Notes under the pieces: generated by a model
What the model was told of the DNA's origin: nothing
Seen by the model: only the letters and a program-made list of their open reading frames with translations
The model's database searches: none
Assembly: GCF_000022265.1 (NCBI RefSeq)
Contig: NC_011979.1
Coordinates: forward strand, 330,001 to 362,000
Reading direction: 5' to 3'
Length of the DNA stretch: 32,000 nucleotides
DNA from: Geotalea daltonii FRC-32
GTDB lineage: Bacteria > Desulfobacterota > Desulfuromonadia > Geobacterales > Geobacteraceae
Program-made: the position numbers and the translations under genes
Part shown: positions 2,672-16,824 of the stretch, one piece after another
Layout of the letters: every line of letters starts with the position of its first letter
How positions within the stretch are numbered: the first letter of the stretch is position 1

Positions 2672-2768
2672 ATCATCTCCGAGCCGTGCAGCCTAACAGG
2701 TTCCCTCATGGTGCCCGGCCTACGGGTTTCGCTGGAAACGGCGGGGCCTCCCTTTCGGAAAGGAGTAA
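2672..2768 (+). promoter_or_regulatory. Moco/Tuco-class riboswitch aptamer, copy A (Moco RNA motif)
   Basis: Conserved blocks: CUCCGAGCC (2677-2685), GCUGGAAACGGC hairpin with GAAA loop (2731-2742), GCCUCCC (2747-2753) and GGAAAGGAG (2757-2765). CUCC 2677-2680 pairs with GGAG 2762-2765 (P1). It sits upstream of the tungstoenzyme gene aor. Confidence 0.8.
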
Positions 2769-2813
2769 GCAAGCCCTTGCGGGTAAACACTATGATTGGG
2801 AGAAGATAAAGAA

Positions 2814-4544
2814 ATGGACAAGATTTTACGCGTCAACATGACCGACCTCACCACCAGGACCGAGCCGGTACCGGCCGCCTGGGCCGGTTTGGGGGGCCGT
2901 GCCCTTACCTCCACCATTGTTGCGGCCGAAGTGCCTGCCACCTGCCATGCCCTGGGTGAGAACAACAAGCTGGTCTTTGCCCCCGGGCTTCTCACCGGTA
3001 CCCCTGCCGCCAACTCAGGCCGCCTCTCTGCAGGGGCCAAGAGCCCGCTTACGGGCACCATCAAAGAATCGAACGCCGGCGGCACTGCGGCCCAGATGCT
3101 GGCCCGCCTTGGGGTCAAGGCCCTGATCATCGAGGGGCTGCCCAAAGCGGACAAGTGGTACAGCCTCCATGTCTCCAAGGACGGCGTCACTGTGCAGGAG
3201 GAGAGCGAGCTGATCGGCAAGGGCAACTTCGCCGTCATCGAGGCACTGGAAGCCCGCCTCGGCAAGAAGACCGGCATCCTCACCATCGGTCCGGCAGGTG
3301 AGCTGAAGATGACCGCCGCCAACATCTCGGTCAAGGACCCGGACAGCAAGATCCGCAGCCATGGCCGTGGCGGGCTGGGGGCCGTCATGGGTTCCAAGAA
3401 GATCAAGTTCATCACCATCAATGACGAAGGGGCACCGGGCGTGAAGATTGCCGACCCGGAGAAATTCAAGGTGGCCGCCCGCACCTTTGCCAAGGCGCTC
3501 CTGGATCATCCGGTCAGCGGCGAGGGGCTCCCCACTTACGGCACCAACGTTCTCGTCAACATCCTCAACGAGGCGGGGGGGCTGCCGACGAAAAACTTCA
3601 CCCTCGGCCAGTTCGAGGGGCACGACAAGATCTCGGGTGAGACCTTGCACGATACCATCGTTGCCCGCGGTGGCAAGCCGAAGCACGGCTGTCACGCCGG
3701 CTGCATCATCCAGTGCTCCCAGGTCTACCACGACAAGGATGGCAAGTACGTTACCTCCGGTTTCGAATACGAGACCATCTGGGGGCTCGGCGCCGACTGC
3801 TGCATCGACAACCTGGATGACATCGCCCTGGCGGACAACATCATGGACGATATCGGCGTCGATTCCATCGAGACGGCGGTCATGTTCGGCGTGGCCATGG
3901 AGGCAGGCATTCTTTCCTTTGGCGACAGCAAGGAGATGCTGCGCCTGCTCAGGGACGAAATCGGCACAGGCACACCCCTCGGCCGCATCCTGGGTGGCGG
4001 CGCCGCCAGCGTCGGCAAGGCCTACGGCGTTACAAGGGTCCCGGTGGTGAAGAACCAGGCGATTCCCGCCTATGACCCCCGTTCGGTCAAGGGGATCGGC
4101 ATCACCTACGCCACTTCCACCATGGGAGCGGACCACACCTCCGGTTACACCATCGCCACCAACATCCTTAATGTGGGAGGTTTCGTCGATCCGTTGAAGA
4201 AGGACGGCCAAGTCGAGCTTTCCCGCAACCTGCAGATTGCCACCGCAGCCGTCGATTCCACCGGCATGTGCATCTTCGTCGCCTTCCCGGCCCTGGATAT
4301 TCCCGAATGCCTTCCCGCCCTGATCGACATGATCAATGCCCGCTTCGGCATCTCGCTTACCGGGGACGATGTCACCGACCTGGGAAAACAGGTGCTGAAG
4401 ACCGAGCGCCAATTCAATATCGAGGCGGGCTTCACCAAGGAGCACGACCGTCTGCCCGAGTTCTTCAAGACGGAGCCGGTGGCGCCTCACAATGCGGTCT
4501 GGGACTTCAGCGATGAGGAAATCGACGAGTTCTGGAACTTCTAA
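2814..4544 (+). CDS. aor: Tungsten-containing aldehyde:ferredoxin oxidoreductase (AOR family)
   Basis: MDKILRVNMTDLTTRTEPVP... is a typical AOR N-terminus. The AOR N-domain is followed by the Cys-rich HGCHAGCIIQC segment and the distal DSTGMCIFVAF cluster-ligand region. ATG 2814 has a GGGAGAAG SD; track start 2796 is a TTG. Confidence 0.9.
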   Translation: MDKILRVNMTDLTTRTEPVPAAWAGLGGRALTSTIVAAEVPATCHALGENNKLVFAPGLLTGTPAANSGRLSAGAKSPLTGTIKESNAGGTAAQMLARLGVKALIIEGLPKADKWYSLHVSKDGVTVQEESELIGKGNFAVIEALEARLGKKTGILTIGPAGELKMTAANISVKDPDSKIRSHGRGGLGAVMGSKKIKFITINDEGAPGVKIADPEKFKVAARTFAKALLDHPVSGEGLPTYGTNVLVNILNEAGGLPTKNFTLGQFEGHDKISGETLHDTIVARGGKPKHGCHAGCIIQCSQVYHDKDGKYVTSGFEYETIWGLGADCCIDNLDDIALADNIMDDIGVDSIETAVMFGVAMEAGILSFGDSKEMLRLLRDEIGTGTPLGRILGGGAASVGKAYGVTRVPVVKNQAIPAYDPRSVKGIGITYATSTMGADHTSGYTIATNILNVGGFVDPLKKDGQVELSRNLQIATAAVDSTGMCIFVAFPALDIPECLPALIDMINARFGISLTGDDVTDLGKQVLKTERQFNIEAGFTKEHDRLPEFFKTEPVAPHNAVWDFSDEEIDEFWNF

Positions 4545-4561
4545 ACAATGGTAAAACCCCT

Positions 4562-4593
4562 GTCCCCCGGCGTCATCGATGATGCCGGGGGAC
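4562..4593 (+). other. 32-nt near-perfect palindrome/hairpin between aor and the moaD-like gene
   Basis: GTCCCCCGGC-G-TCATCGATGA-T-GCCGGGGGAC. The 10-bp GC-rich outer stem encloses the self-complementary TCATCGATGA. No U-tract follows. Confidence 0.8.
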
Positions 4594-4612
4594 ACCAGTA
4601 TGTGAGGCTATC

Positions 4613-4837
4613 GTGAATATTACCGTCAAACTATTTGCCACCTTCAGAAACGGCCGGTTCAAGATCGACAACCAGGAGTGGCCTGAAGGGACGGATTGCC
4701 GCAGGATCGTTGCCAGCCTGGGGCTTACGGAAGAGGAGATCGGCATCGTCCTGATCAATGGCCGGCATGTTCCCCTGGAGCAGCAGTTGGCGCAGGCCGA
4801 TACTCTTTCACTTTTCCCGCTGGTAGGAGGGGGTTGA
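4613..4837 (+). CDS. MoaD/ThiS-family small sulfur-carrier-like protein (C-terminal GG)
   Basis: 74 aa with a GTG start and a GAGG SD. A ubiquitin-like small protein ending ...LFPLVGGG, the hallmark of MoaD/ThiS carriers. Its stop lies 1 nt before the thiF-like start. Confidence 0.75.
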   Translation: MNITVKLFATFRNGRFKIDNQEWPEGTDCRRIVASLGLTEEEIGIVLINGRHVPLEQQLAQADTLSLFPLVGGG

Positions 4838-4838
4838 T

Positions 4839-5687
4839 ATGGATGCAGTGCTGCAGTACCTGTGGAGCAAGGCGGAAGGGGACCTTGTGCCCTGGTCTGC
4901 CCAATCGGAAGCGGTCCGGCAGTTCGGCTTGAGCTACGGGCAAGTGGAAAGCCTGATCCTGGAGAAGGGGCTGTTGCCAGCCCGCTACCAGCGCAACCGC
5001 ACCACGGTTTCCACCATCGAGCAGCGACAGCTGTTCAACAGCCGGGTGGCGGTCATCGGCTGCGGCGGCCTGGGGGGCTACATCATCGAGGAACTGGCCA
5101 GGCTGGGGGTCGGGCAGATTGTCGCCATCGATCCGGACATCTTCGAGGAACACAACCTCAACCGACAACTGTTTTCGAGCCCCCATGCCCTCGGCAAGCC
5201 TAAGGTTGAGGCTGCTGCGGCCCGCGTCAGCGAGATAAATCCGGCGGTCAACCTGGTACCGGTCCAGGAGGCTTTCACCACCGCCAACGGGAAGCAACTC
5301 CTGCAGGGGGTGACGGTTGCGGTCGACGCCCTGGACAGCATCGCCTATCGCCTGGAACTGGCGGAAGTTTGCAGCGAGATGGACATCCCCATGGTCTACG
5401 GGGCCATCGGCGGCTGGTACGGCCACGTTGCTACCCAGCTGCCGGGGGACACCACCATCCAGCGCACCTATCGCAACTGGGTGGAAGGGAAGGGAATCGA
5501 AAAGCAGCTGGGCAACCCCTCCTTCACTCCGGCGGTGGTAGCGAGCCTGCAGGTGGCGGAGGTCTGCAAGATCCTCCTCGGCAAAGGGGAGCTCCTGCGT
5601 CATCGGAAGTTAAGCATCGACCTCCTGGAGATGGAGATTTTCGATGTCTCGTATGCGGCGCTTGCGGAGCTGGTGCGTGCGGCGTAA
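4839..5687 (+). CDS. ThiF/MoeB/HesA-family E1-like adenylyltransferase
   Basis: VAVIGCGGLGGYIIEELARLGVGQIVAIDPDIFEEHNLNRQ is the Rossmann/ATP motif of the ThiF/MoeB family. It has a roughly 65-aa N-terminal extension and no CxxC pairs. It appears translationally coupled to the MoaD-like gene. Confidence 0.85.
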   Translation: MDAVLQYLWSKAEGDLVPWSAQSEAVRQFGLSYGQVESLILEKGLLPARYQRNRTTVSTIEQRQLFNSRVAVIGCGGLGGYIIEELARLGVGQIVAIDPDIFEEHNLNRQLFSSPHALGKPKVEAAAARVSEINPAVNLVPVQEAFTTANGKQLLQGVTVAVDALDSIAYRLELAEVCSEMDIPMVYGAIGGWYGHVATQLPGDTTIQRTYRNWVEGKGIEKQLGNPSFTPAVVASLQVAEVCKILLGKGELLRHRKLSIDLLEMEIFDVSYAALAELVRAA

Positions 5688-5698
5688 TTACTCTCCTG

Positions 5699-5728
5699 TT
5701 GACATCAAGGCATACGGAGACATACTCA
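5699..5728 (+). promoter_or_regulatory. Candidate sigma70 promoter for mop (TTGACA-17/18-TACTCA)
   Basis: A perfect -35 TTGACA lies at 5699-5704. A -10-like ATACTC/TACTCA lies at 5722-5728, in the 74-nt gap after the thiF-like gene. Confidence 0.35.
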
Positions 5729-5761
5729 AAGTGGAAACTCCATTTTGAGGAGGATGTCACC

Positions 5762-6190
5762 ATGAACATCAGTGCGAGAAATCTCCTGTCGGGCAAGGTT
5801 ACAACGGTCAGAAAAGGGGCAATAAACTCCGAGGTTGAACTTTCCCTTGATGGAGGGGAAACGATTGCAGCGGTCATTACCAATGCCAGCCTGGAAGAAA
5901 TGGGAATCAAGGAAGGCATGGAGGCATTCGCCCTTGTCAAGGCCCCGCTGGTTATTATCGCCAAGGGAAACACCGGGCTCAAATTCAGCGCCCGTAACGT
6001 CCTGCAGGGCACGGTCAAGAAAATCGCACAGGGCAGTGTCAATGCAGAGATCTCCATACAACTGCAGGGGAGTGGTATCATCACCTCCATCATCACCAAA
6101 GGGAGCGTCGCTGCCATGGCATTGCAGGAAGGGGATCAGGTCAGCGCCATCTTCAAGGCCTCCAGTGTCATACTTGCCGTAAAGGCATAG
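5762..6190 (+). CDS. mop: Di-Mop (tandem TOBE) molbindin, molybdate/tungstate-binding protein
   Basis: ATG 5762 follows GAGGAGG. There are two repeats, each starting with the Mop signature (NISARNLLSGKV... and KFSARNVLQGTV...). The track ORF from 5369 is an artefactual extension that overlaps the thiF-like gene. Confidence 0.85.
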   Translation: MNISARNLLSGKVTTVRKGAINSEVELSLDGGETIAAVITNASLEEMGIKEGMEAFALVKAPLVIIAKGNTGLKFSARNVLQGTVKKIAQGSVNAEISIQLQGSGIITSIITKGSVAAMALQEGDQVSAIFKASSVILAVKA

Positions 6191-6196
6191 GGCCGA

Positions 6197-6233
6197 TTTA
6201 CTGCTTGACAGATTAATGACATAATGGTACTAG
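6197..6233 (+). promoter_or_regulatory. Candidate sigma70 promoter(s) ahead of riboswitch copy B
   Basis: Option 1 is TTGACA (6205-6210), 17 nt, TACTAG (6228-6233). Overlapping option 2 is TTTACT (6197-6202), 17 nt, CATAAT (6220-6225). Confidence 0.45.
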
Positions 6234-6257
6234 TTTACCACAATTGAATGCTCGAAC

Positions 6258-6354
6258 TTTCTCCGAGCCTGTCCGCCTACCGGGAATATTCCCCATGGTG
6301 TCAGGCCTGTGGGCTCTGCTGGAAACGGCAGGACCTTCCTTTGAAAAGGAGAAC
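6258..6354 (+). promoter_or_regulatory. Moco/Tuco-class riboswitch aptamer, copy B
   Basis: CUCCGAGCC (6261-6269), a CUGCUG-GAAA-CGGCAG hairpin, and AAAAGGAG (6344-6351). The P1 extension UUCUCC/GGAGAA covaries with copy C. The core reads GACCUUCC where copies A and C have GCCUCCC. Confidence 0.75.
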
Positions 6355-6380
6355 CTCTCGCCACGCTATGATTGCGTTCT

Positions 6381-6416
6381 AGGGGCTCCTTTATCCAAAG
6401 GAGCCCTTTTTGTTTG
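6381..6416 (+). terminator. Intrinsic terminator forming the expression platform of riboswitch copy B
   Basis: AGGGGCUCCUUU-AUCC-AAAGGAGCCCU is followed by UUUUUGUUUG. Its 5' arm CUCCUUU (6386-6392) is also complementary to the aptamer's 3' strand AAAGGAG (6345-6351), which gives a P1/antiterminator/terminator arrangement. Confidence 0.8.
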
Positions 6417-6469
6417 TGGCTGATCACGTGCTTCGAACATGACTTCAAAACCAGATAAATGATTCTCAA

Positions 6470-6563
6470 CTCTCCGAGCCACGCCGCCTAAAGGGTAGTT
6501 TTCCCATGGCGACCGGCTAGGGTGCCGCTGGAAACGGCTGTGCCTCCCTTTTGGAAAGGAGAG
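6470..6563 (+). promoter_or_regulatory. Moco/Tuco-class riboswitch aptamer, copy C
   Basis: CUCUCCGAGCC (6470-6480), the GCUGGAAACGGC hairpin, GCCUCCC (6542-6548) and GGAAAGGAGAG (6553-6563). P1 CUCUCC/GGAGAG is 6 bp. The porin start lies 116 nt downstream. Confidence 0.8.
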
Positions 6564-6678
6564 CCTCAAAGTACCGGACCTGTTCCTGTATCCAAAGGCC
6601 TCTTTCCATCTGCGGACAGACTCTTTGATGCATTTGGGGGAGACCTTTTCCCCTGTTATTAGAAAACAGGAGGGTACG

Positions 6679-7920
6679 ATGAAGAAACGCAGCTTAGCAG
6701 CAACAGTGGTGGCAATGGGCCTGGTGCTCATCCCGGGTGTTCATGCCAAAACGCTTGAGGATGTGCTCAAGGAGAAAGGGGTCATCACCGAAGAGGATTA
6801 CAAGGAAGTAACCAGGAGCAAGGCGCTGAATTACAAGCCGGGCAAGGGGTTCACCCTGACCTCTGCCGACGAAAAGTTTCAGCTTTCTTTGGGAGGAAGG
6901 CTCCAGACCCGTTACACCTTCACGGATGCCGACGACAACGGTACCAGCAGGGACTCCAACAAGTTTGAGGTCAAGCGCATGAAGTTCTGGCTGAATGGCT
7001 ACGCCTACACCAAGGACCTCACTTACCTGCTCCAGGTGGATTTTGTTCAGGGTGGCTCATCGAAGCTCCTGGATCATGCCTACCTGAATTACCGGTTTGT
7101 CGACGAAGCTCAGGTTCTGGCCGGGCAGACCAAGGTGCCGTTCGGCCGGCAATGGCTGAATTCTTCCGGTTCCCAGCAGTTCGTCGACCGCTCCACCGCT
7201 TCGGACATGTTCCGCCCCGGTTATGAGGCTGGAGTCAAGGTTCACGGAGCTGTGGCCGGCGGCATCGCCACCTACGAGCTGGGTTATTATGGCGGCGCCG
7301 GCCAGAGTACCTTCCGTACCTCCAACGACAATGCCTATGCCGCCAGGATAACCGCAAACCCATTCGGTAAGATGGCCTATGCCGAAGGGGACCTGGATCA
7401 GAGCGAAAAACCTCTCCTTTCGGTGGGAGCCAACTATTATCGTAATACCCTGCAGAAAAGCACAGCTACCGCCTTCGAAACCAACAATGTTACGTTAGCC
7501 GGTTCAACCGGCTGGCTCGGCAAAGGAATTGGTACCTTTGCAAACGGGGAAAAGATCGACATCAACGGCTACGGCGTCGATGCCGCTTTCAAATGGCTTG
7601 GCGCCTCCACCCAGGCCGAGTACCTGTTGGGGCAGGCCGACGGCCACACCAGCGACAAGACCCTCCGTGCCCACGGCTTCTATGCTCAGGCCGGTTACTG
7701 CATCATTCCGAGGAAACTGGAGCTGGCCTTCCGCTACTCCTTCGTCGATCCCAACCGGGACAAGGCCAACGATCAGCAGGTCGACACCCAGGGAGCCATT
7801 TCCTACTATTTCAACAAGCACAACCTGAAGCTGCAGGGGGATGTCACCAACAGCCACGACCAGAGCAAAGGCCGAACGGATGATATGATCTATCGCCTCC
7901 AGGCACAGGTGATCTTTTAA
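6679..7920 (+). CDS. Outer-membrane anion porin, phosphate-selective porin O/P (OprO/OprP)-like
   Basis: ATG 6679 follows AGGAGGG. Signal peptide MKKRSLAATVVAMGLVLIPGVHA. Alternating beta-strand pattern and a C-terminal ...YRLQAQVIF with terminal Phe, typical of OM beta-barrels. FQLSLGGRLQTRY and FEVKRMKFWLNG resemble the Porin_O_P family. Confidence 0.65.
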   Translation: MKKRSLAATVVAMGLVLIPGVHAKTLEDVLKEKGVITEEDYKEVTRSKALNYKPGKGFTLTSADEKFQLSLGGRLQTRYTFTDADDNGTSRDSNKFEVKRMKFWLNGYAYTKDLTYLLQVDFVQGGSSKLLDHAYLNYRFVDEAQVLAGQTKVPFGRQWLNSSGSQQFVDRSTASDMFRPGYEAGVKVHGAVAGGIATYELGYYGGAGQSTFRTSNDNAYAARITANPFGKMAYAEGDLDQSEKPLLSVGANYYRNTLQKSTATAFETNNVTLAGSTGWLGKGIGTFANGEKIDINGYGVDAAFKWLGASTQAEYLLGQADGHTSDKTLRAHGFYAQAGYCIIPRKLELAFRYSFVDPNRDKANDQQVDTQGAISYYFNKHNLKLQGDVTNSHDQSKGRTDDMIYRLQAQVIF

Positions 7921-8042: not shown

Positions 8043-8855
8043 ATGAAACAGTGGCGTATCCTTTTATTAACATTGACCTCCCTTGCTTTCTTCTGCGCTT
8101 CGGCCGGAGCCGAAGAACGCCTGAAGATGTCCACTACCACTTCGACCCAGGATTCGGGGCTTTTGAAGGTGCTCCTGCCACCCTTCGAGAAGAAAAATAA
8201 CTGCCAGGTGGACGTTATCGCCGTCGGCACCGGCCAGTCCCTCAAGCTGGGTGAAGCTGGCGACGTGGATGTGGTCTTCGTCCATGCCAGGAAGCTGGAA
8301 GACAAATTCATTGCCGACGGTTTCGGCGTCAACCGCCGCGACGTCATGTACAACGATTTCGTCATCATCGGGCCGAAGGATGATCCGGCCGGAATAGCCA
8401 GGGCCAAAACCGCTGCCGAGGCGCTGCAGATGATTGCCGCCAAAGGAGCCACCTTTGTTTCCCGTGGAGACAAATCGGGAACCCACATCAAGGAAAAGGA
8501 TCTCTGGCAGGCGGCCGGAATTGCGCCGAAGGGGGGGTGGTATGTGGAGGCGGGCCAGGGGATGGGGCCGGTCATTACCATGGCAACCGAGCGCCGAGGC
8601 TACACCCTGACTGATCGCGGGACCTACAACGCTTTCAAGGGAAAGAAGACCGATCTGACCGTCCTCTTCCAGGGGGAGAAGGGGCTTTTCAATCCCTATG
8701 GGGTCATAGCCGTAAATCCCAGGAAACATCCCCATGTGAAGTACGACCTGGCAATGAAGTTTATCGAGTATGTGACCGGACCGGAGGGCCAGAAAATCAT
8801 TGCCGGTTACAAGGCATACGGGGAGCCGGTGTTTTTCATCTACGGCAAGAAGTAG
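8043..8855 (+). CDS. tupA: Tungstate ABC transporter periplasmic binding protein (TupA family)
   Basis: A signal peptide ending ASAGA, then KMSTTTSTQDSGLL, which carries the TTTS motif characteristic of TupA. PBP fold length is 270 aa. The SD is AAAGGAGAA. Confidence 0.8.
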   Translation: MKQWRILLLTLTSLAFFCASAGAEERLKMSTTTSTQDSGLLKVLLPPFEKKNNCQVDVIAVGTGQSLKLGEAGDVDVVFVHARKLEDKFIADGFGVNRRDVMYNDFVIIGPKDDPAGIARAKTAAEALQMIAAKGATFVSRGDKSGTHIKEKDLWQAAGIAPKGGWYVEAGQGMGPVITMATERRGYTLTDRGTYNAFKGKKTDLTVLFQGEKGLFNPYGVIAVNPRKHPHVKYDLAMKFIEYVTGPEGQKIIAGYKAYGEPVFFIYGKK

Positions 8856-8873: not shown

Positions 8874-9587
8874 ATGCAGAACATCATCGAACTGCAAAAC
8901 GTAGCGAAGAATTATGGCAACACAATTGCCTTGCAGCTGAACCGGCTGGCCATAGGGGAGGGTGAGTTGTATCTTCTTGCCGGGCCGAACGGCTCCGGCA
9001 AGAGCACTCTTCTAAACATACTGGGTTTTTTGACTCGCCCGGATCGAGGGGAACTGCTTTTCTCCGGCGAGCGGGTCGATTGGAAGAGGGGAACAATGAC
9101 CCGTTTGCGCCGGCAAGTCACCCTTCTCCACCAGTCCCCCTACCTTTTTCGCGGCAACGTTTACGATAATGTCGCGTATGGCCTTTCCCTGCGAGGCATG
9201 GGAGGTGCCAAGGCACAGGAAGTTGTGTCTGAAACCCTGGCTACTGTCGGGCTTGACGGATTCCAATTGCGCAAGCACACGGAACTGTCGGGGGGCGAAG
9301 CCCAGCGGGTAGCCATGGCCAGGGCGCTGGCACTGAGGCCGAAGTTGCTGCTCCTGGATGAGCCGCTGGCCAACGTGGACCAGAAGAGCGCCCGCGTCCT
9401 TGAAGAAGTCATAGCCGGCCTCCCTTCCATGGGGACCACGGTGGTCATGTCTTCCCACGACCCGCAACATGAAAAAAAGCTTCCCTGCCAAGTGATCCAG
9501 CTGCAAGGGGGGCGGATGAATGCCGATCATCTGGATGAGACCGAGTCCCTTGGCAATCTGCTTGGCTATCCTGCTGTTCAGATCTGA
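8874..9587 (+). CDS. ABC transporter ATP-binding protein (TupC-like)
   Basis: Walker A GPNGSGKST, signature LSGGEAQRV, Walker B LLLLDEP and an H-loop SSHD. It starts 18 nt after tupA. No transmembrane subunit gene is adjacent. Confidence 0.85.
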   Translation: MQNIIELQNVAKNYGNTIALQLNRLAIGEGELYLLAGPNGSGKSTLLNILGFLTRPDRGELLFSGERVDWKRGTMTRLRRQVTLLHQSPYLFRGNVYDNVAYGLSLRGMGGAKAQEVVSETLATVGLDGFQLRKHTELSGGEAQRVAMARALALRPKLLLLDEPLANVDQKSARVLEEVIAGLPSMGTTVVMSSHDPQHEKKLPCQVIQLQGGRMNADHLDETESLGNLLGYPAVQI

Positions 9588-9617: not shown

Positions 9618-9654
9618 CTACGGCAGCAATGGAATTACTGCCGTAGCTTTTTTC
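9618..9654. terminator. Bidirectional intrinsic terminator shared by the ATPase gene (+) and the Zn-ADH gene (-)
   Basis: CUACGGCAG-11 nt-CUGCCGUAG is followed by CUUUUUUC on the plus strand and by UUUUCC on the minus strand. Confidence 0.8.
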
Positions 9655-10876
9655 AGTGTGTCATCTCGCGTGTCTGCAACTCCACCTTCAGCCAGCCCGA
9701 CTGGCGCATGTCGAAGGCTCGATAGGCATCCACCGCCGAGGTGAGCGGTTCCCTCCTGGTCAGTATCCTGACCGGATCGACCGTGCCGCTTCTGACCATG
9801 TCCAGCAGGAACGGAATATATTTGCGATGGTTGCAGTTGCCCATCTTGATGGTGAGGTTCTTGTTCATGGCCATGCCGATGGGGAAAAGGGTCACACTCT
9901 CCGGATAAACGCCGATAACGGAGAAGGTGCCCGCCTTGGCCAGGCACTCCACCCCCCAGATGAGGGTCATGGATGGAGCATCGCCGGGATGCCAGTTGTC
10001 ACCGCTGATATTGGTCTGGGGTGCCACGTGGGCCACCTCCTGCCTGAATTCCTCTTCGTGTTCCTTCGCCTCCCTCACTGCCGGGCCAGTATGAGGCGCT
10101 TCAGCATCGACTCCGACGGCGTCGATGGCACGATCGCAGCCGATTCCCCCGGTCATATCCCGGATCATCTGCACCGGGTCCTCCTTGGAAAAGTCGATTA
10201 CCTCGGCTCCCTGTTCCCGTGCCTTTTCCAACCGCGAGGGGATGCAGTCAACGGCGAAGATCCTGCCGGCCTGGAATAGTTTGGCGCTGGCGATGGCGAA
10301 CTGGCCAACGGGTCCGCAGCCGAAGATTGCCACGGTGTTGCCCGGTTTTATCTCGGCCAGTTCCGCTCCCATGTATCCCGTCGGAAAGATGTCCGAGACC
10401 AGGATTGCCTGCTCGTCGGTGACACCGTCAGGAATTTTGACCAGGCCTACCCCGGCAAAGGGTATCCGCGCTTTCTCCGCCTGCAGGCCGTTGACGGGGC
10501 CGGATTTTTCTGGGCCGCCGAAAAAGCTGGTTCCGGCCTGCATGCCGTTTGGGTTGGCATTATCGCACTGGGCATAGTAGCCGTCCCGGCAATAGGAGCA
10601 ATAGCCGCAGGCTATGGTGGATGGAATAAGAACCCGGTCGCCAGGCTTGAAGTTGCGCACGGCAGTACCGACCTCTTCCACCGTGCCGACCCCTTCGTGG
10701 CCGAGAATGGTCCCCGGCCTCATCCCGCTCATGGTGCCGCGCACCATGTGGAGATCGGTGCCGCAGATGGCGCTGGCAGTTATCTTGACGATGGCATCGG
10801 TCTGTTGTTCGATCCTCGGCTCAGCGACATCATCCAGCCGGATGTCGCCCACTCCGTGCCACACAACTGCTTTCAT
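9653..10876 (-). CDS. Zn-dependent alcohol/formaldehyde dehydrogenase (glutathione-independent FDH-like MDR)
   Basis: MKAVVWHGVGDIRLDDV...ICGTDLHMVRG...GHEGVGTVEEVG, the structural-Zn Cys cluster CGYCSYCRDGYYAQC, and GCGPVGQ for NAD binding. The SD is GGGAGG. Confidence 0.85.
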   Translation of the reverse strand: MKAVVWHGVGDIRLDDVAEPRIEQQTDAIVKITASAICGTDLHMVRGTMSGMRPGTILGHEGVGTVEEVGTAVRNFKPGDRVLIPSTIACGYCSYCRDGYYAQCDNANPNGMQAGTSFFGGPEKSGPVNGLQAEKARIPFAGVGLVKIPDGVTDEQAILVSDIFPTGYMGAELAEIKPGNTVAIFGCGPVGQFAIASAKLFQAGRIFAVDCIPSRLEKAREQGAEVIDFSKEDPVQMIRDMTGGIGCDRAIDAVGVDAEAPHTGPAVREAKEHEEEFRQEVAHVAPQTNISGDNWHPGDAPSMTLIWGVECLAKAGTFSVIGVYPESVTLFPIGMAMNKNLTIKMGNCNHRKYIPFLLDMVRSGTVDPVRILTRREPLTSAVDAYRAFDMRQSGWLKVELQTREMTH

Positions 10877-14843: not shown

Positions 14844-16037
14844 TCAGTGTACGGTCTGGCTGGTCCCCTGGGGCCTGAGGACGATCTTGACGCAGCCGTC
14901 CTGCTTGCGGTCGAAGAGTTCGTAGCCCATGGGTGCATCATTCAGGGACATGCGGTGGGTGATGAGAAACGACGAGTCGATCTCCCCGGTCTCAATCAGT
15001 CGCATCAGCGGCCGCAGGTACTTCTGGACGTGAGTCTGTCCGGCGCGGAGGGTCAACCCTTTGGCGAAAATGGCACCCATGGGCATTTTATCCACAAAGC
15101 CGCTGTATACGCCCGGCACAGAAATAGTTCCTCCCTTGCGGCACGCCTTGATCAACTGGCGCAGGGCAATGGGGCGGTCATTTTCCAGGTGCAGGGTCTG
15201 TTTGACCGTGTCATAGGCTGCTTCGAATCCGGTTCCCTGGGCTTCCATGCCGACGGCGTCGATGCAGGAATCGGGGCCCCGCCCGCCGGTCATGTTGTGC
15301 AGCGCTTCCGTAATGTCGGTTTCTTCATAGTTGAGTGTTTCAGCTTTGCAGTGCATGCGGGCCATTTCCAGTCGCTCGGGGAAGCGGTCTATGGCGAATA
15401 CCTTGCCCGCTCCCAGGTGCCAGGCGCATTTCATTGCCAGAAGCCCTACCGGCCCGCAGCCCCAGACGGCAACCGTGTCCCCTTTCCGAATATTGCAGTT
15501 TTCGGCGGCCTGGTAACCGGTGGGCAGGATATCGGTGAGGAAAAGTACCTTCTCGTCGCCCAATTCCGCAGGGACCTTCTCCAGACCGGTGTCGGCAAAG
15601 GGAACGCGGACGTATTCCGCTTGCCCACCGGCATAGCCGCCGTACAGATGGGAATAGCCGAATATGCCGGCGCCGGTGTCTCCATAGAGTTTTTCCAGCA
15701 TCCAGGAATTGGGATTGGAGTTGTCGCAGAGGGCCCACAGCCCCTCCTGGCAGTACCAGCAGTCGCCGCAGGCTATGGGAAAGGGAACGATGACGCGGTC
15801 GCCGCGGCTGATTGAAGTAATGGCTGAGCCCACCTCGACAACCTCGCCCATGAACTCGTGGCCGAGGATGTCCCCTTCTTTCATGGTCGGGACCTTGCCG
15901 TTATAGAGATGCAGATCTGAGCCGCAGATGCCGGAGAGGGTGACTTTGACGATGGCATCACGAGGGTTGAGGATCTGGGGGTCCGGAACAGTATCTACCT
16001 GCACATTGTGCTTCCCGTGCCAGCAAACAGCCTTCAT
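14844..16037 (-). CDS. Zn-dependent alcohol/formaldehyde dehydrogenase (FDH-like MDR), second paralogue
   Basis: ATG 16037 follows [22 protein letters not shown]...[11 protein letters not shown]...[27 protein letters not shown] and GCGPVG. Confidence 0.85.
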
Positions 16038-16071
16038 AGAGCCTCCTTTCCTGTAGTGTGAGGTGGCCGGA

Positions 16072-16824
16072 TCAGTGGAAGGTTTCACTTCCCCTGTAGG
16101 CCGCCGTGGCGGTTTCTCCAGTCTCCATAATCTGTTTCAGGCGTTTCAGGTCTTCTTCGATGACCTGGGCATTGATGCCGTGGGCAACCCTGGCCGCTAT
16201 TTTTCCGGCTGCTCCACCGGGGGGGCGATAGGACAGATTAACCTTCAGTTCGGTGCCGCGTCCACCGGGGGCTTCCATGAATTCCACCGACCCTTCGTTG
16301 GGGATATCGGCATTACCCAGGGATTGCCAGCTGATCCTCTGCCCCGGGTAGTCTTCCAGTATCTCCGCATCCCATTCAACCGTTACCCCGGCCGGTCCCT
16401 TTGCCTTCCAGTGGGAGGTGCGGCCGCCGGTAGTGCGGACGGTATCCAGGTGACGCATGAATCTGGGGATGTTTTCGAAGTTATGCCAGAATTCATAGAC
16501 TTCCTGTGGAGAGCGGTTGATGGTCAGCACCTTCTCCACGCTCAGCCCCTTGTCTTCAGTTCCGGCGGTGTCAACGCCCATTGCCTCGAACAGATCGCAA
16601 TGGCCGGTTTTGCCGCGGTAGAGGAACATCCCTCCTGCTGCCATCAGTGCCATTCCCGGCAGAATCCGCTTTTGGGCCAGCTTTGTCAGCCCTGAAACGG
16701 CAAGCGCCGCCCCACCGATCATGGATGCGGTCCTCTCGTTTCGGCCCACATTGATCCGCTCCTTTCCATGCTGTTTTGCCCCTCTTTCCAAGCCACTCCG
16801 GGTTGCTCCAGTTGCAGCTTCCAT
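16072..16824 (-). CDS. SRPBCC (cyclase/dehydrase-like) protein with N-terminal DUF2892-like membrane segment
   Basis: ATG 16824 follows GGAGGAGA. The N-terminus [22 protein letters not shown] is followed by [25 protein letters not shown], typical of SRPBCC/polyketide-cyclase-like folds. Confidence 0.65.

Follow-up and report, generated by a model that had tools for sequence, protein, structure and literature searches.

The question raised by this locus of Geotalea daltonii FRC-32 is whether several copies of one riboswitch class, situated in front of a tungstoenzyme operon and a metal uptake operon, all act in the same direction. The original prediction recognized three Moco/Tuco-class aptamers here and, by implication, supposed uniform cofactor feedback on both operons. 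In the window (the whole stretch of 32,000 nucleotides that was analyzed), a cmscan search at the Rfam gathering thresholds returned exactly three matches to RF01055, all on the forward strand, each at about 62 bits against a gathering score of 36 bits, and the predicted intervals (2672-2768, 6258-6354 and 6470-6563) all fall within them:

2665-2779, + strand: riboswitch A, P3-less RF01055, 5' of aor (62.5 bits, E-value 6e-13)
6249-6367, + strand: riboswitch B, P3-less RF01055, first of a tandem pair (61.9 bits)
6460-6577, + strand: riboswitch C, P3-less RF01055, second of the tandem pair, adjoining the porin gene (61.6 bits)

The cmscan alignments of A, B and C all show a deletion of model positions 60-74, which correspond to P3. 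This is the Tuco-associated form, an association that is correlative and has two exceptions in 19 organisms (PMC2408646). All three copies contain CUCCGAGCC and GCUGGAAACGGC, as predicted; the third proposed block, GGAAAGGAG, occurs only in A and C, while B carries GAAAAGGAG in its place, a G-to-A substitution that is matched by a compensatory change in P5 (C-G to U-A). In the three-copy alignment standard pairs make up 87.9% of cells, versus 44-52% with the 3' partners slid, and two-sided changes were found at 6 pairs, including the P1 extension (UUCUCC/GGAGAA in B versus CUCUCC/GGAGAG in C) and the inner P2 hairpin, so that the compensatory changes noticed earlier are borne out. The same three copies are carried by two independent metagenome contigs, and orthologous ones by Geotalea toluenoxydans and Geotalea sp. 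SG265; A-type copies precede aor also in the loci L024, L015, L005, L148 and L150-L158. With the E. coli moaA prototype (RF01055, PMC2408646) the window copies share P1, P2 with a receptor-like bulge, a GAAA-capped P4, P5 and the conserved junction blocks CUCCGAGCC and GGAAAGGAG. Unlike them, the moaA element possesses P3, responds to Moco and hides the Shine-Dalgarno (SD) sequence in its P1 3' strand (OFF), whereas in the window the P1 3' strand never serves as SD. A, B and C are thus genuine cis-acting riboswitches and belong to the P3-less form of the known Moco/Tuco class.

The genes adjoining these copies, identified by Pfam and NCBIfam, and two sites among them are as follows:

2814-4544, + strand: aor, aldehyde:ferredoxin oxidoreductase, tungstoenzyme family (Pfam AFOR_N and AFOR_C)
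4613-4837, + strand: ThiS/MoaD-like small protein (Pfam ThiS)
4839-5687, + strand: ThiF/MoeB-like adenylyltransferase (Pfam ThiF)
5699-5726, + strand: mop promoter-like site, TTGACA-16-CATACT (10/12)
5762-6190, + strand: mop, molbindin with two Mop/TOBE domains (Pfam, NCBIfam)
6636-6653, + strand: small GGGG...CCCC hairpin 5' of the porin SD (terminator/hairpin scan and fold)
6679-7920, + strand: outer-membrane porin, Porin_O_P family (Pfam)
8043-8855, + strand: TupA-like periplasmic tungstate-binding protein (Pfam PBP_like_2)
8874-9587, + strand: ABC-transporter ATPase (Pfam, NCBIfam)

The predicted links to tungsten and molybdenum genes hold for both operons. The AOR is 100% identical to the FRC-32 protein named by NCBI as aldehyde:ferredoxin oxidoreductase, bis-(molybdopterin)-oxotungsten-binding. 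The order aor-thiS-thiF is preserved in all relatives, and MoaD-like genes of aor operons are regarded as putative maturation factors of the tungsten cofactor (PMC6365974); the top NCBIfam matches of the ThiF/MoeB-like protein are MoeB and ThiF, all under the curated cut-offs. As had been proposed, mop has a separate conserved promoter-like site: this is the top sigma-70 match of the region, and L024 and L015 share its hexamers, so that all three Geotalea species have them, while the spacer varies. The mop gene is absent from the syntenic locus of Geobacter metallireducens. In the uptake operon, the porin is 100% identical to the FRC-32 protein, and its orthologs are preceded by a P3-less riboswitch across Geobacteraceae; hairpins comparable to the one 5' of its SD occur in L045, L009, L010 and L006. 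The sole NCBIfam match of the TupA-like protein is tung_bind_TupA, at 250 bits versus a cut-off of 400, and the ATPase is 53% identical to the one that occupies the TupC position in the operon of G. metallireducens. The uptake operon lacks a permease gene, none lying between tupA and the ATPase gene.

These contexts bear on the ligand. The ligand of the P3-less aptamers might be Moco, metal-free molybdopterin or the two metal forms alike rather than specifically the tungsten cofactor, since direct binding has been shown for neither form and the link between P3 absence and Tuco is correlative (PMC2408646); besides, mod and tup systems are both present in Geobacter species (PMC2700814), and moaE, a gene serving both cofactors, is likewise found behind P3-less copies. 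We consider such a broader specificity unlikely, because all contexts found (aor, tupA-like, moaE) are of tungsten-type or shared, with zero molybdoenzymes, and because two terminator-bearing P3-less copies of Eubacterium limosum responded to tungsten limitation (PMC11725836).

The leader of aor contains the following elements:

2671-2680, + strand: P1 5' strand and 5' flank of A, UAUCAUCUCC, candidate anti-SD in this copy, complementary to GGAGAAGAUA
2748-2757, + strand: P4 3' end plus P5 5' strand and loop of A, CUCCCUUUCG, anti-SD in most aor leaders
2788-2808, + strand: expression platform of A, without terminator (complementarity, folds)

This platform (2788-2808) contains no terminator-like site, and in this A resembles about 70 other aor leaders: terminators are lacking from 61 unique ones and from those of 12 aor orthologs taken from genomes and metagenome contigs irrespective of leader length. 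Terminator absence separates aor from non-aor copies with a Fisher p of 1e-7. The platform comprises CACUAUGA (2788-2795), complementary to the P2 3' strand UCAUGGUG (2706-2713), and, 3' of it, the SD GGGAGAAGAUA (2798-2808). In the unconstrained fold of A, UAUCAUCUCC pairs with the SD region GGAGAAGAUA (2798-2808), and 0.79 of the SD pairing in the free ensemble goes to 2671-2680; neither L015 nor L024 conserves the part of this P1 5' flank that extends beyond UCUCC. The segment CUCCCUUUCG forms just 5+3 bp with UGAUUGGGAG in A, while anti-SD segments of its type form a contiguous 6-10 bp in most of 57 aor leaders, being register-specific and with some covariation. Across these 57 leaders, 74.4% of cells pair between the SD with its flank and the CUCCC plus P5 loop, compared with 70.7 ± 1.0% in shuffles (0 of 500 reaching the observed value) and 49-57% when slid, and the covariation score of the SD flank with the aptamer is 0.111 versus 0.068; GGAG-type SDs are all complementary to the CUCC motifs of the aptamer, which by itself would lead one to expect some pairing. 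When the aptamer was enforced, the median probability of the SD being unpaired rose from 0.07 to 0.40, with the SD more open in 47 of the 57 leaders (Wilcoxon p 4e-9).

Apparently, the aor SD would be sequestered by parts of the aptamer itself, namely by the CUCCC and P5-loop segment in most aor leaders and, in A, by the 5' strand of P1 and the 3' strand of P2. Given this complementarity, cofactor-driven aptamer folding should free the SD. The distance of just about 45-60 nt between the adh stop codon and the aor-leader aptamer in relatives fits translational control within an operon. Considering thermodynamic folding and complementarity to conserved aptamer sequence, A would control aor translation, probably switching it ON upon cofactor binding, at about even confidence. 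A very stable P4, which may stay folded without ligand, is a counterpoint to such a sign.

The reading closest to the original prediction is that all three copies are OFF switches exerting uniform negative feedback on both uptake and the aor operon. It finds support in E. coli moaA, the sole tested member of the class, which is an OFF switch (PMC2408646), in the classical sequestor/antisequestor scheme proposed for E. limosum WOR1 (PMC11725836), in the MoaD/ThiF-like genes of biosynthesis type within the aor operon, for which negative feedback is usually expected and which are likewise a counterpoint to ON for A, and in the leader of L015, where the SD does not open but goes the opposite way with the aptamer enforced. 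The stretch from the aptamer to the aor SD, however, contains neither a terminator nor an SD-overlapping hairpin, the SD opens more under the enforced aptamer in the great majority of leaders, its flank covaries with the aptamer core, and the aor platform is strictly unlike those of uptake and biosynthesis copies of the same genomes. Uniform repression is therefore a possible, albeit clearly minority, reading. The gene links behind the predicted feedback stand, but the aor and uptake platforms differ sharply and suggest opposite signs.

Riboswitch B is accompanied by the elements of a conventional terminator switch:

6197-6225, + strand: promoter-like site 5' of B, TTTACT-17-CATAAT with TG (promoter scan)
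6345-6357, + strand: AAAGGAGAACCUC, P1 3' strand plus antiterminator 5' arm, pairing with GGGGCUCCUUU
6381-6416, + strand: intrinsic terminator, 12-bp stem with loop AUCC, followed by UUUUUGUUUG (scan, folds)

B is followed by a standard intrinsic terminator with a competing antiterminator, whose partner GGGGCUCCUUU occupies 6382-6392. When the transcript was folded to a point before the terminator 3' arm, the antiterminator displaced P1 in the window, in L015 and in G. metallireducens. L015 keeps the antiterminator complementarity with other letters (AAAAGGAGAA and UUCUCUUUUU), and the terminator of SG265 differs in sequence with both pairings preserved. The part ATAATGGTAC of the promoter-like site is conserved in L024 and L015, and three Geotalea species retain the full set of aptamer, promoter-like site, antiterminator and terminator of B. 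A terminator of this kind is present in 33 of 39 unique non-aor copies, which lie 5' of porin/tupA, moaE or an unknown gene. With the cofactor bound, P1 would hold AAAGGAG and the terminator would form; in its absence, AAAGGAG..CCUC would pair with GGGGCUCCUUU and RNA polymerase would read through. B would consequently act as a transcriptional OFF switch.

In riboswitch C such a terminator has been replaced, as two further elements suggest:

6571-6584, + strand: GUACCGGACCUGUU, Geotalea-only segment, candidate SD sequestor, pairing with AACAGGAGGGUAC
6596-6607, + strand: AGGCCUCUUUCC, 5' arm left over from the ancestral terminator, candidate anti-sequestor

Alignment with the terminators of G. 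metallireducens, L008 and L005 indicates that the 3' arm and U-tract of the ancestral terminator have decayed in all three Geotalea species, whereas its 5' arm AGGCCUCUUUCC remains complementary to the P1 3' region GGAAAGGAGAGCCU (6553-6566), and the helix 6553-6566/6596-6607 forms in the fold of a partial transcript. As GUACCGGACCUGUU pairs with AACAGGAGGGUAC (6665-6677), which includes the porin SD, it is a candidate sequestor; each of the three Geotalea leaders has this helix in its minimum-energy fold, and in the alignment both its arms are absent from leaders of the G. metallireducens type. The Geotalea-specific helix would cover the porin SD and the old antiterminator pairing would release it, which suggests, with low certainty, translational OFF control by C. 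It may also be supposed that C is decaying, having lost its terminator after the gain of B, and regulates nothing, the SD-covering helix being a constitutive leader feature. This would agree with the degenerate terminator remains and with the folds, in which the enforced-aptamer and alternative structures are near-equal in energy and the SD is paired in both. We find it very improbable, given that the C aptamer scores as high as A and B, that the model R1 matches C at 97-107 bits in L024 and L015 despite P2 sequences unlike those of the window, and that the old antiterminator pairing is retained.

No promoter-like site was found by the promoter scan between the terminator of B and C, and we infer that the two are co-transcribed; C, on the transcript of B, would then serve as a second gate. 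Gene-less tandem pairs 5' of the porin occur also in G. toluenoxydans, Geotalea sp. SG265, Pelotalea chapellei and two MAGs (L009 and L010), while in L042 a riboswitch pair precedes moaE and the porin. Since moaE sits between both riboswitches in L006 and L019 and the corresponding position in G. metallireducens is occupied by one copy only, B could be a relic of the riboswitch of a lost gene, or a stand-alone short RNA, with C transcribed from a promoter of its own, for which a weak -10-like GATAAA/ATAAAT lies just 5' of C. The candidate -35/-10 before C, however, failed the promoter scan and is not conserved in L024 or L015, B retains every one of its elements in three Geotalea species, and the gene-less pairs recur in P. 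chapellei and the two MAGs; we thus regard this possibility as quite unlikely and retain B as a working first gate.

The density of one riboswitch class around a tungstoenzyme, previously considered unusual, proved ordinary for this bacterial group: two or three copies are packed into a few kb in the loci of many relatives, and tandem or triple P3-less copies and aor/tup targets have been published. Syntrophomonas wolfei has at least 15 copies, including three P3-less ones in series with terminators, and tandems occur in G. metallireducens (Regulski et al., 2008, PMC2408646); Moco and Wco tandems were listed by Sherlock et al. (2022, PMC9481103). As in these arrangements, the Geotalea uptake leader puts several complete aptamers (two, versus three in the S. 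wolfei series) before a tungstate/molybdate transport operon, with an intrinsic terminator belonging to the upstream member and a long gap after the last aptamer. Unlike in S. wolfei, the operon begins with an outer-membrane porin, and the second aptamer has swapped its terminator for an SD-covering helix, so that the gates of B and C would act at different levels. In E. limosum, Tuco riboswitches precede WOR1, tupABC, two iron transporters and focA (PMC11725836); likewise, one genome combines P3-less copies before a tungsten oxidoreductase operon and tungstate uptake, with a mix of terminator-type and translation-type platforms. For WOR1 and tupABC a separate RBS sequestor and antisequestor were proposed (PMC11725836), whereas in Geobacterales aor leaders the SD-complementary segment lies inside the aptamer, which implies the opposite sign. 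The closely related aorA1-aorA3 genes of Pelobacter carbinolicus, a related Desulfuromonadales bacterium, are preceded by predicted 'molybdenum cofactor' riboswitches (Aklujkar et al., 2012, PMC3543383); transcriptional control is assumed in that paper, and no mechanism, sign or leader analysis is given.

Taken together, we are fairly confident of the overall reading of three P3-less RF01055 copies with B as a predicted OFF switch, C as a putative second gate and A as a probable ON switch. The new feature is that the type of expression platform tracks the gene class. The net logic for the organism would be that the tungstoenzyme is made when its cofactor is present and that tungstate uptake is shut when the cofactor is plentiful.

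Scanning of the whole window against Rfam at gathering thresholds returned exactly three matches, all of them to RF01055 ('Molybdenum/Tungsten riboswitch aptamer', gathering score 36 bits) and all on the + strand:

2665-2779, + strand, riboswitch A, RF01055, 62.5 bits
6249-6367, + strand, riboswitch B, RF01055, 61.9 bits
6460-6577, + strand, riboswitch C, RF01055, 61.6 bits

Each copy aligned to the complete RF01055 model (positions 1-135), and the coordinates proposed from the sequence alone fell inside these matches; the original prediction of three Moco/Tuco-class aptamers was thus borne out, with scores far exceeding the gathering one. The P3 hairpin (model positions 60-74), by the presence or absence of which the class is divided, was deleted in all three alignments, the junction between P2 and P4 being bridged by one to a few residues; A, B and C are RF01055 members of the P3-less subclass. 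In the three-copy alignment, 88% of the cells of the five-helix structure were standard pairs, as compared to 44-52% when the 3' partners were slid by 1-3 columns. Six pairs were changed on both sides among the copies, and these include the compensatory changes in the P1 extension and the inner P2 hairpin noticed at the outset, so that helices P1, P2 (with its inner hairpin), P4 and P5 are backed by both pairing and compensatory change. The claim of blocks shared by all copies needed an amendment, since GGAAAGGAG is absent from B, which carries GAAAAGGAG, the change being matched in P5 by a C-G pair turned into U-A. Direct reading of the sequence located CUGGAAACGG, with the GAAA tetraloop of P4, in A, B and C, while the receptor-like bulge of P2 (CCUAA...AUGG) reads CCUAAC..CAUGG in A, CCUACC..CAUGG in B and CCUAAA..CAUGG in C. 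No fourth aptamer was found in the window with a covariance model built from A, B and C; two model searches of related loci yielded 33 and 74 additional aptamer matches.

The Moco/Tuco riboswitch class has been known since 2007-2008. It was defined by Regulski et al. (2008; PMC2408646), who split it by the presence of P3, associated its P3-less form with the metabolism of the tungsten cofactor and noted both translational and terminator-type expression platforms; as the ligand is unstable, direct cofactor binding has never been demonstrated in vitro, the prototype included (PMC2408646). The gene context of the P3-less copies is tungsten-related here as well (aor with AFOR_N/AFOR_C, a TupA-like binding protein, MoaD/MoeB-like genes), and the ligand of this form is presumably the tungsten cofactor. 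Riboswitch control was predicted for aorA1-3 in the Pelobacter carbinolicus genome paper (PMC3543383), tandems of Moco and Wco (tungsten cofactor) aptamers were described among riboswitches with multiple expression platforms (Sherlock et al., 2022; PMC9481103), and in Eubacterium limosum P3-less copies with mixed platform types were reported in 2024 before WOR1, tupABC and other operons (PMC11725836). The class and its P3-less subclass, the tandem layout and the links to aor, tup and molybdopterin genes had thus all been published before, so three copies within 3.9 kb are not exceptional, and in place of the unusual density once claimed the locus adds one example. What stands of the original reading as cofactor feedback is the class, the subclass and the gene links; its rarity was overstated, and the regulatory sign was probably oversimplified.

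Geotalea daltonii FRC-32 proteins match both the porin and AOR at 100% identity, and the gene families assigned by Pfam and NCBIfam, together with two promoter-like sites, are arranged as follows:

1251-2450, iron-type alcohol dehydrogenase (Fe-ADH), upstream of riboswitch A
2814-4544, AOR (AFOR_N/AFOR_C), downstream of riboswitch A
4613-4837, ThiS/MoaD-like protein
4839-5687, ThiF/MoeB-like protein
5699-5726, promoter-like site TTGACA-16-CATACT before mop, the best such site of the region
5762-6190, two-domain Mop molbindin, upstream of riboswitches B and C
6197-6225, promoter-like site with an extended -10, just upstream of B, -10 region conserved
6679-7920, Porin_O_P porin, downstream of B and C
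8043-8855, TupA-like binding protein (NCBIfam 250 bits, below the equivalog cut-off of 400)
8874-9587, ABC ATPase, 18 nt after the tupA-like gene

The assignments of aor, the MoaD- and ThiF-like genes and the TupA-like protein agree with the view that the controlled genes are W/Mo-related. A promoter of its own had also been suggested for mop, and both hexamers at 5699-5726 are kept in two other Geotalea species, G. toluenoxydans and Geotalea sp. SG265, the latter with a different spacer; such conservation of the hexamers beside a divergent spacer supports separate transcription of mop. The uptake operon contains no permease gene between the tupA-like gene and the ATPase gene (8855 and 8874), and no BPD_transp or other permease gene was present among the ten larger ORFs scanned elsewhere in the window, whereas a TupABC transporter comprises binding protein, permease and ATPase together, and the G. 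metallireducens operon has the full tupA-tupB-tupC set, including the tupB absent from the G. daltonii locus. Around the aor locus there are three alcohol dehydrogenase genes, the iron-type one and two zinc-type ones (9653-10876 and 14844-16088, both on the - strand), which fits a role of AOR in alcohol and aldehyde metabolism.

Riboswitch B has a clear expression platform. A terminator lies 14 nt past its aptamer, made up of a 12-bp hairpin with UUUUUGUUUG behind it (6381-6416); the 5' arm of this terminator, GGGGCUCCUUU, can pair with AAAGGAG..CCUC, i.e., with the P1 3' strand and the nucleotides next to it. When the B transcript is folded to just before the terminator 3' arm, this antiterminator is predicted to replace P1, and partial-transcript folding displaces P1 likewise in SG265 and G. 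metallireducens; the SG265 terminator has a different sequence and retains both pairings. Judged by these predicted folds, B has the textbook OFF design of a terminator with a competing antiterminator, and terminators of this kind follow 33 of the 39 unique copies at related loci that do not precede aor. Between the end of B at 6367 and the start of C at 6460 there are the terminator and 43 nt with no gene; the sole ORF listed there (6244-6423) overlaps aptamer B. The promoter scan detected no promoter-like site between the B terminator and C (6417-6459), where nothing is conserved either; B and C therefore most likely act in series on a single transcript. The leader carries two complete aptamers, B with a clear terminator and antiterminator and C without a standard terminator.

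As revealed by alignment with G. metallireducens-type leaders, C keeps the 5' arm of an ancestral terminator as AGGCCUCUUUCC (6596-6607), still complementary to GGAAAGGAGAGCCU (6553-6566) of its aptamer; in all three Geotalea species the remainder of that terminator, 3' arm and U-tract, has degenerated. Newly acquired in these species are GUACCGGACCUGUU (6571-6584), immediately past P1, and AACAGGAGGGUAC (6665-6677), which spans the ribosome-binding site (SD) of the porin gene, a helix between the two being part of the minimum-energy fold in all three leaders; this candidate SD sequestor and its antisequestor are conserved in the three close species only. C may have passed from transcriptional to translational control, with the sequestor placed over the porin SD and the former antiterminator now serving as antisequestor. 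Folding of C free, with the aptamer enforced, with P1 blocked or with the antisequestor enforced gave nearly equal energies, the SD being paired every time, so that the modelling favours neither regulatory sign for C, whose very activity as a switch is putative. A small GGGG-loop-CCCC hairpin (6636-6653) precedes the porin SD by 15-25 nt, as it does in four related loci (L045, L009, L010 and L006), and is located downstream of the terminator where the leader has one.

Eighty genome loci, fetched from the porin-ortholog alignment, were searched with the three-copy covariance model. A gene-free aptamer pair stands directly upstream of the porin gene in G. toluenoxydans, Geotalea sp. SG265, Pelotalea chapellei and two MAGs (L009, L010); in locus L042 both moaE and the porin gene follow the pair, a further two loci have moaE between the two copies, and several genomes of this set have a single copy. 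The syntenic locus of G. metallireducens GS-15 comprises Fe-ADH, aor-thiS-thiF behind a riboswitch, and porin-tupA-tupB-tupC-moeA-moaC-moaB behind one riboswitch with a terminator; relative to this layout, mop and riboswitch B are gains of G. daltonii, which has no tupB or moe/moa genes there. The G. metallireducens tandem reported in 2008 was considered as an ortholog of B-C and rejected, since the syntenic locus has one copy before the porin gene, which places that tandem elsewhere in the genome. In related loci, a MoaE-like gene (MV.LVENPI...FHYAV) was observed between two riboswitches (L006, 5239-5777; L019, 5121-5716), after both (L042, 413-1012) or behind a single copy (L032, 5440 onward); the layouts suggest duplication and reshuffling of riboswitch-terminator units in the surroundings of moaE and the porin gene. 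Repeatedly, a P3-less riboswitch with a terminator is followed by a gene whose product starts with M(R)ILISIDDTDN(L/M)DS..GTGAL (at ~480 in L003, at ~3180 in L013 and, on the minus strand, upstream of 353 in L122), and this gene may belong, so far unrecognised, to the tungsten/molybdopterin regulon.

No terminator follows riboswitch A, the aor start being only 48 nt past the P1 3' strand. Metagenome contigs were searched with an aor-leader pattern (AAAGGAG, 30-60 nt, conserved N-terminal aor codons), and a P3-less aptamer was present at the expected spot in ~60 of the 65 matched loci; the pattern loci, the window and three genome loci made up 58 unique aor leaders. Their shared plan consists of the aptamer, a short variable self-contained hairpin, an A-rich linker, the SD and AUG. 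The SD, almost always GGGAG and often GAAAGGGAG, is complementary together with its 5' flank to CUCCC and the P5 loop, contiguously over 6-10 bp in most leaders, and variants of the P5 loop are mirrored in the SD flank (UUUC/GAAA, UUUU/AAAA, CCCA/UGGG). In the anchored alignment this pairing was found in 74.4% of cells vs 70.7 +/- 1.0 after shuffling (0 of 500 shuffles reached it) and 49-57% in slid registers, with a covariation score of 0.111 vs 0.068. In unconstrained ensembles the SD had a median unpaired probability of 0.07, its main partners being the P5 region (0.55) and the P1 5' strand (0.16); once the aptamer was enforced, the median was 0.40, and the value was higher than in the free state in 47 of 57 leaders. 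In the window's A, the SD-P5 pairing is weak (5+3 bp), the SD partner is the P1 5' strand (2671-2680), and the P2 3' strand pairs with the nucleotides immediately preceding the SD. The long pairing between the 5' flank of A (UAUCAUCUCC) and GGAGAAGAUA was rejected as a conserved anti-SD, for beyond UCUCC it is not kept in SG265 (L015) or G. toluenoxydans (L024); the UAUCAUCUCC extension appears therefore to be a copy-specific pairing, and that of the P5 region the general one.

Terminators were absent from all 61 leaders of the first aor count, in which the pattern allowed 30-60 nt between P1 and aor; leaders long enough for a terminator would have been missed by so biased a count, so orthologs were picked by protein identity alone. 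They came from G. uraniireducens, G. pickeringii, G. argillaceus, Geomonas oryzae, a Desulfuromonadaceae MAG and a metagenome protein, and the set of 12 also counts the window, SG265, G. toluenoxydans and the related loci L005 and L148. All orthologs so chosen had a short leader without a terminator (0/12 in total), in contrast to the 33 of 39 other copies that have one (Fisher p 1e-7, uncorrected for shared ancestry). Apparently, a regularity exists in Geobacterales sequences: a terminator (OFF) is borne by nearly every copy ahead of uptake and biosynthesis genes and by none ahead of aor, where the SD pairs with the aptamer core instead.

In the aor leaders, the sequence covering the SD would be part of the aptamer itself (the 3' end of P4 with P5 and its loop, or the P1 5' strand). 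With the anti-SD inside the aptamer, the ligand-folded aptamer and the covered SD should exclude each other, and activation by the cofactor is predicted. Considering these models, we give even chances to the proposal that the aor-linked P3-less riboswitches of Geobacterales, A included, are translational ON switches with an aptamer-borne anti-SD. Caveats to it are that a GGAG-type SD always finds CUCC in the aptamer, that the stable P4 may stay closed, and that SG265, one of the four closest leaders, departs from the SD-opening trend. Uniform negative feedback, with all copies acting as OFF switches, is opposed by the differing platforms of aor and other copies and seems to us rather unlikely. 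If the aor copies are ON switches, apo-AOR and the MoaD/ThiF-like helpers, which in aor operons are putative W-cofactor maturation factors (PMC6365974), would be made only in the presence of the cofactor, and tungstate uptake would be shut by the same signal. The literature searched, with incomplete coverage, contained no mention of an activating Moco/Tuco-class member, of which the A-type switch may be the first, and nothing relevant on tungsten-dependent expression in G. daltonii. In some relatives the Fe-ADH stop is ~45-60 nt before the aor aptamer, with a hairpin between (L152, 1315-1354; L156, 1342-1387); so short a gap leaves little room for a promoter, which fits translational control inside an adh-aor transcript, where the aor riboswitch may reside in these relatives.

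Several further features of the leaders were observed. The aor leaders of loci L109 and L116 have a six-U run directly after the P1 3' strand, and a hairpin of the P5 region with that strand could serve as a terminator formed only with the aptamer unfolded. Directly upstream of A there is a 31-nt imperfect inverted repeat (2483-2513/2622-2652, 84% complementary, 108 nt apart), accompanied by the short direct repeats CTCTTAGTG (two copies) and CTCTTCGTG/TCTTCGTG (2553-2571, 2634-2650); similar repeats are present in G. toluenoxydans and not in SG265 or G. metallireducens, and the inverted repeat is possibly a mobile or regulatory element of small size. A 9-mer, CTATGATTG, is located a short way past both aptamer A (2789-2797) and aptamer B (6366-6374) and can pair with the P2 3' strand (CAUGGUG); U-to-C changes in both partners improve this pairing in the G. 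toluenoxydans copy of B (AUGGCG/CGCCAU), and in B the helix would cross the antiterminator.

The significance of these results is modest: they offer gene-class-specific expression platforms and a testable prediction, and otherwise change the picture of a known class little. If the aor copies are indeed ON switches, one riboswitch class with one aptamer fold and one ligand would give opposite outputs in a single locus, and the G. daltonii locus, or the simpler one of G. metallireducens, would be a convenient genetic system for comparing both outputs; such control would also help to explain how cells avoid apo-tungstoenzyme.
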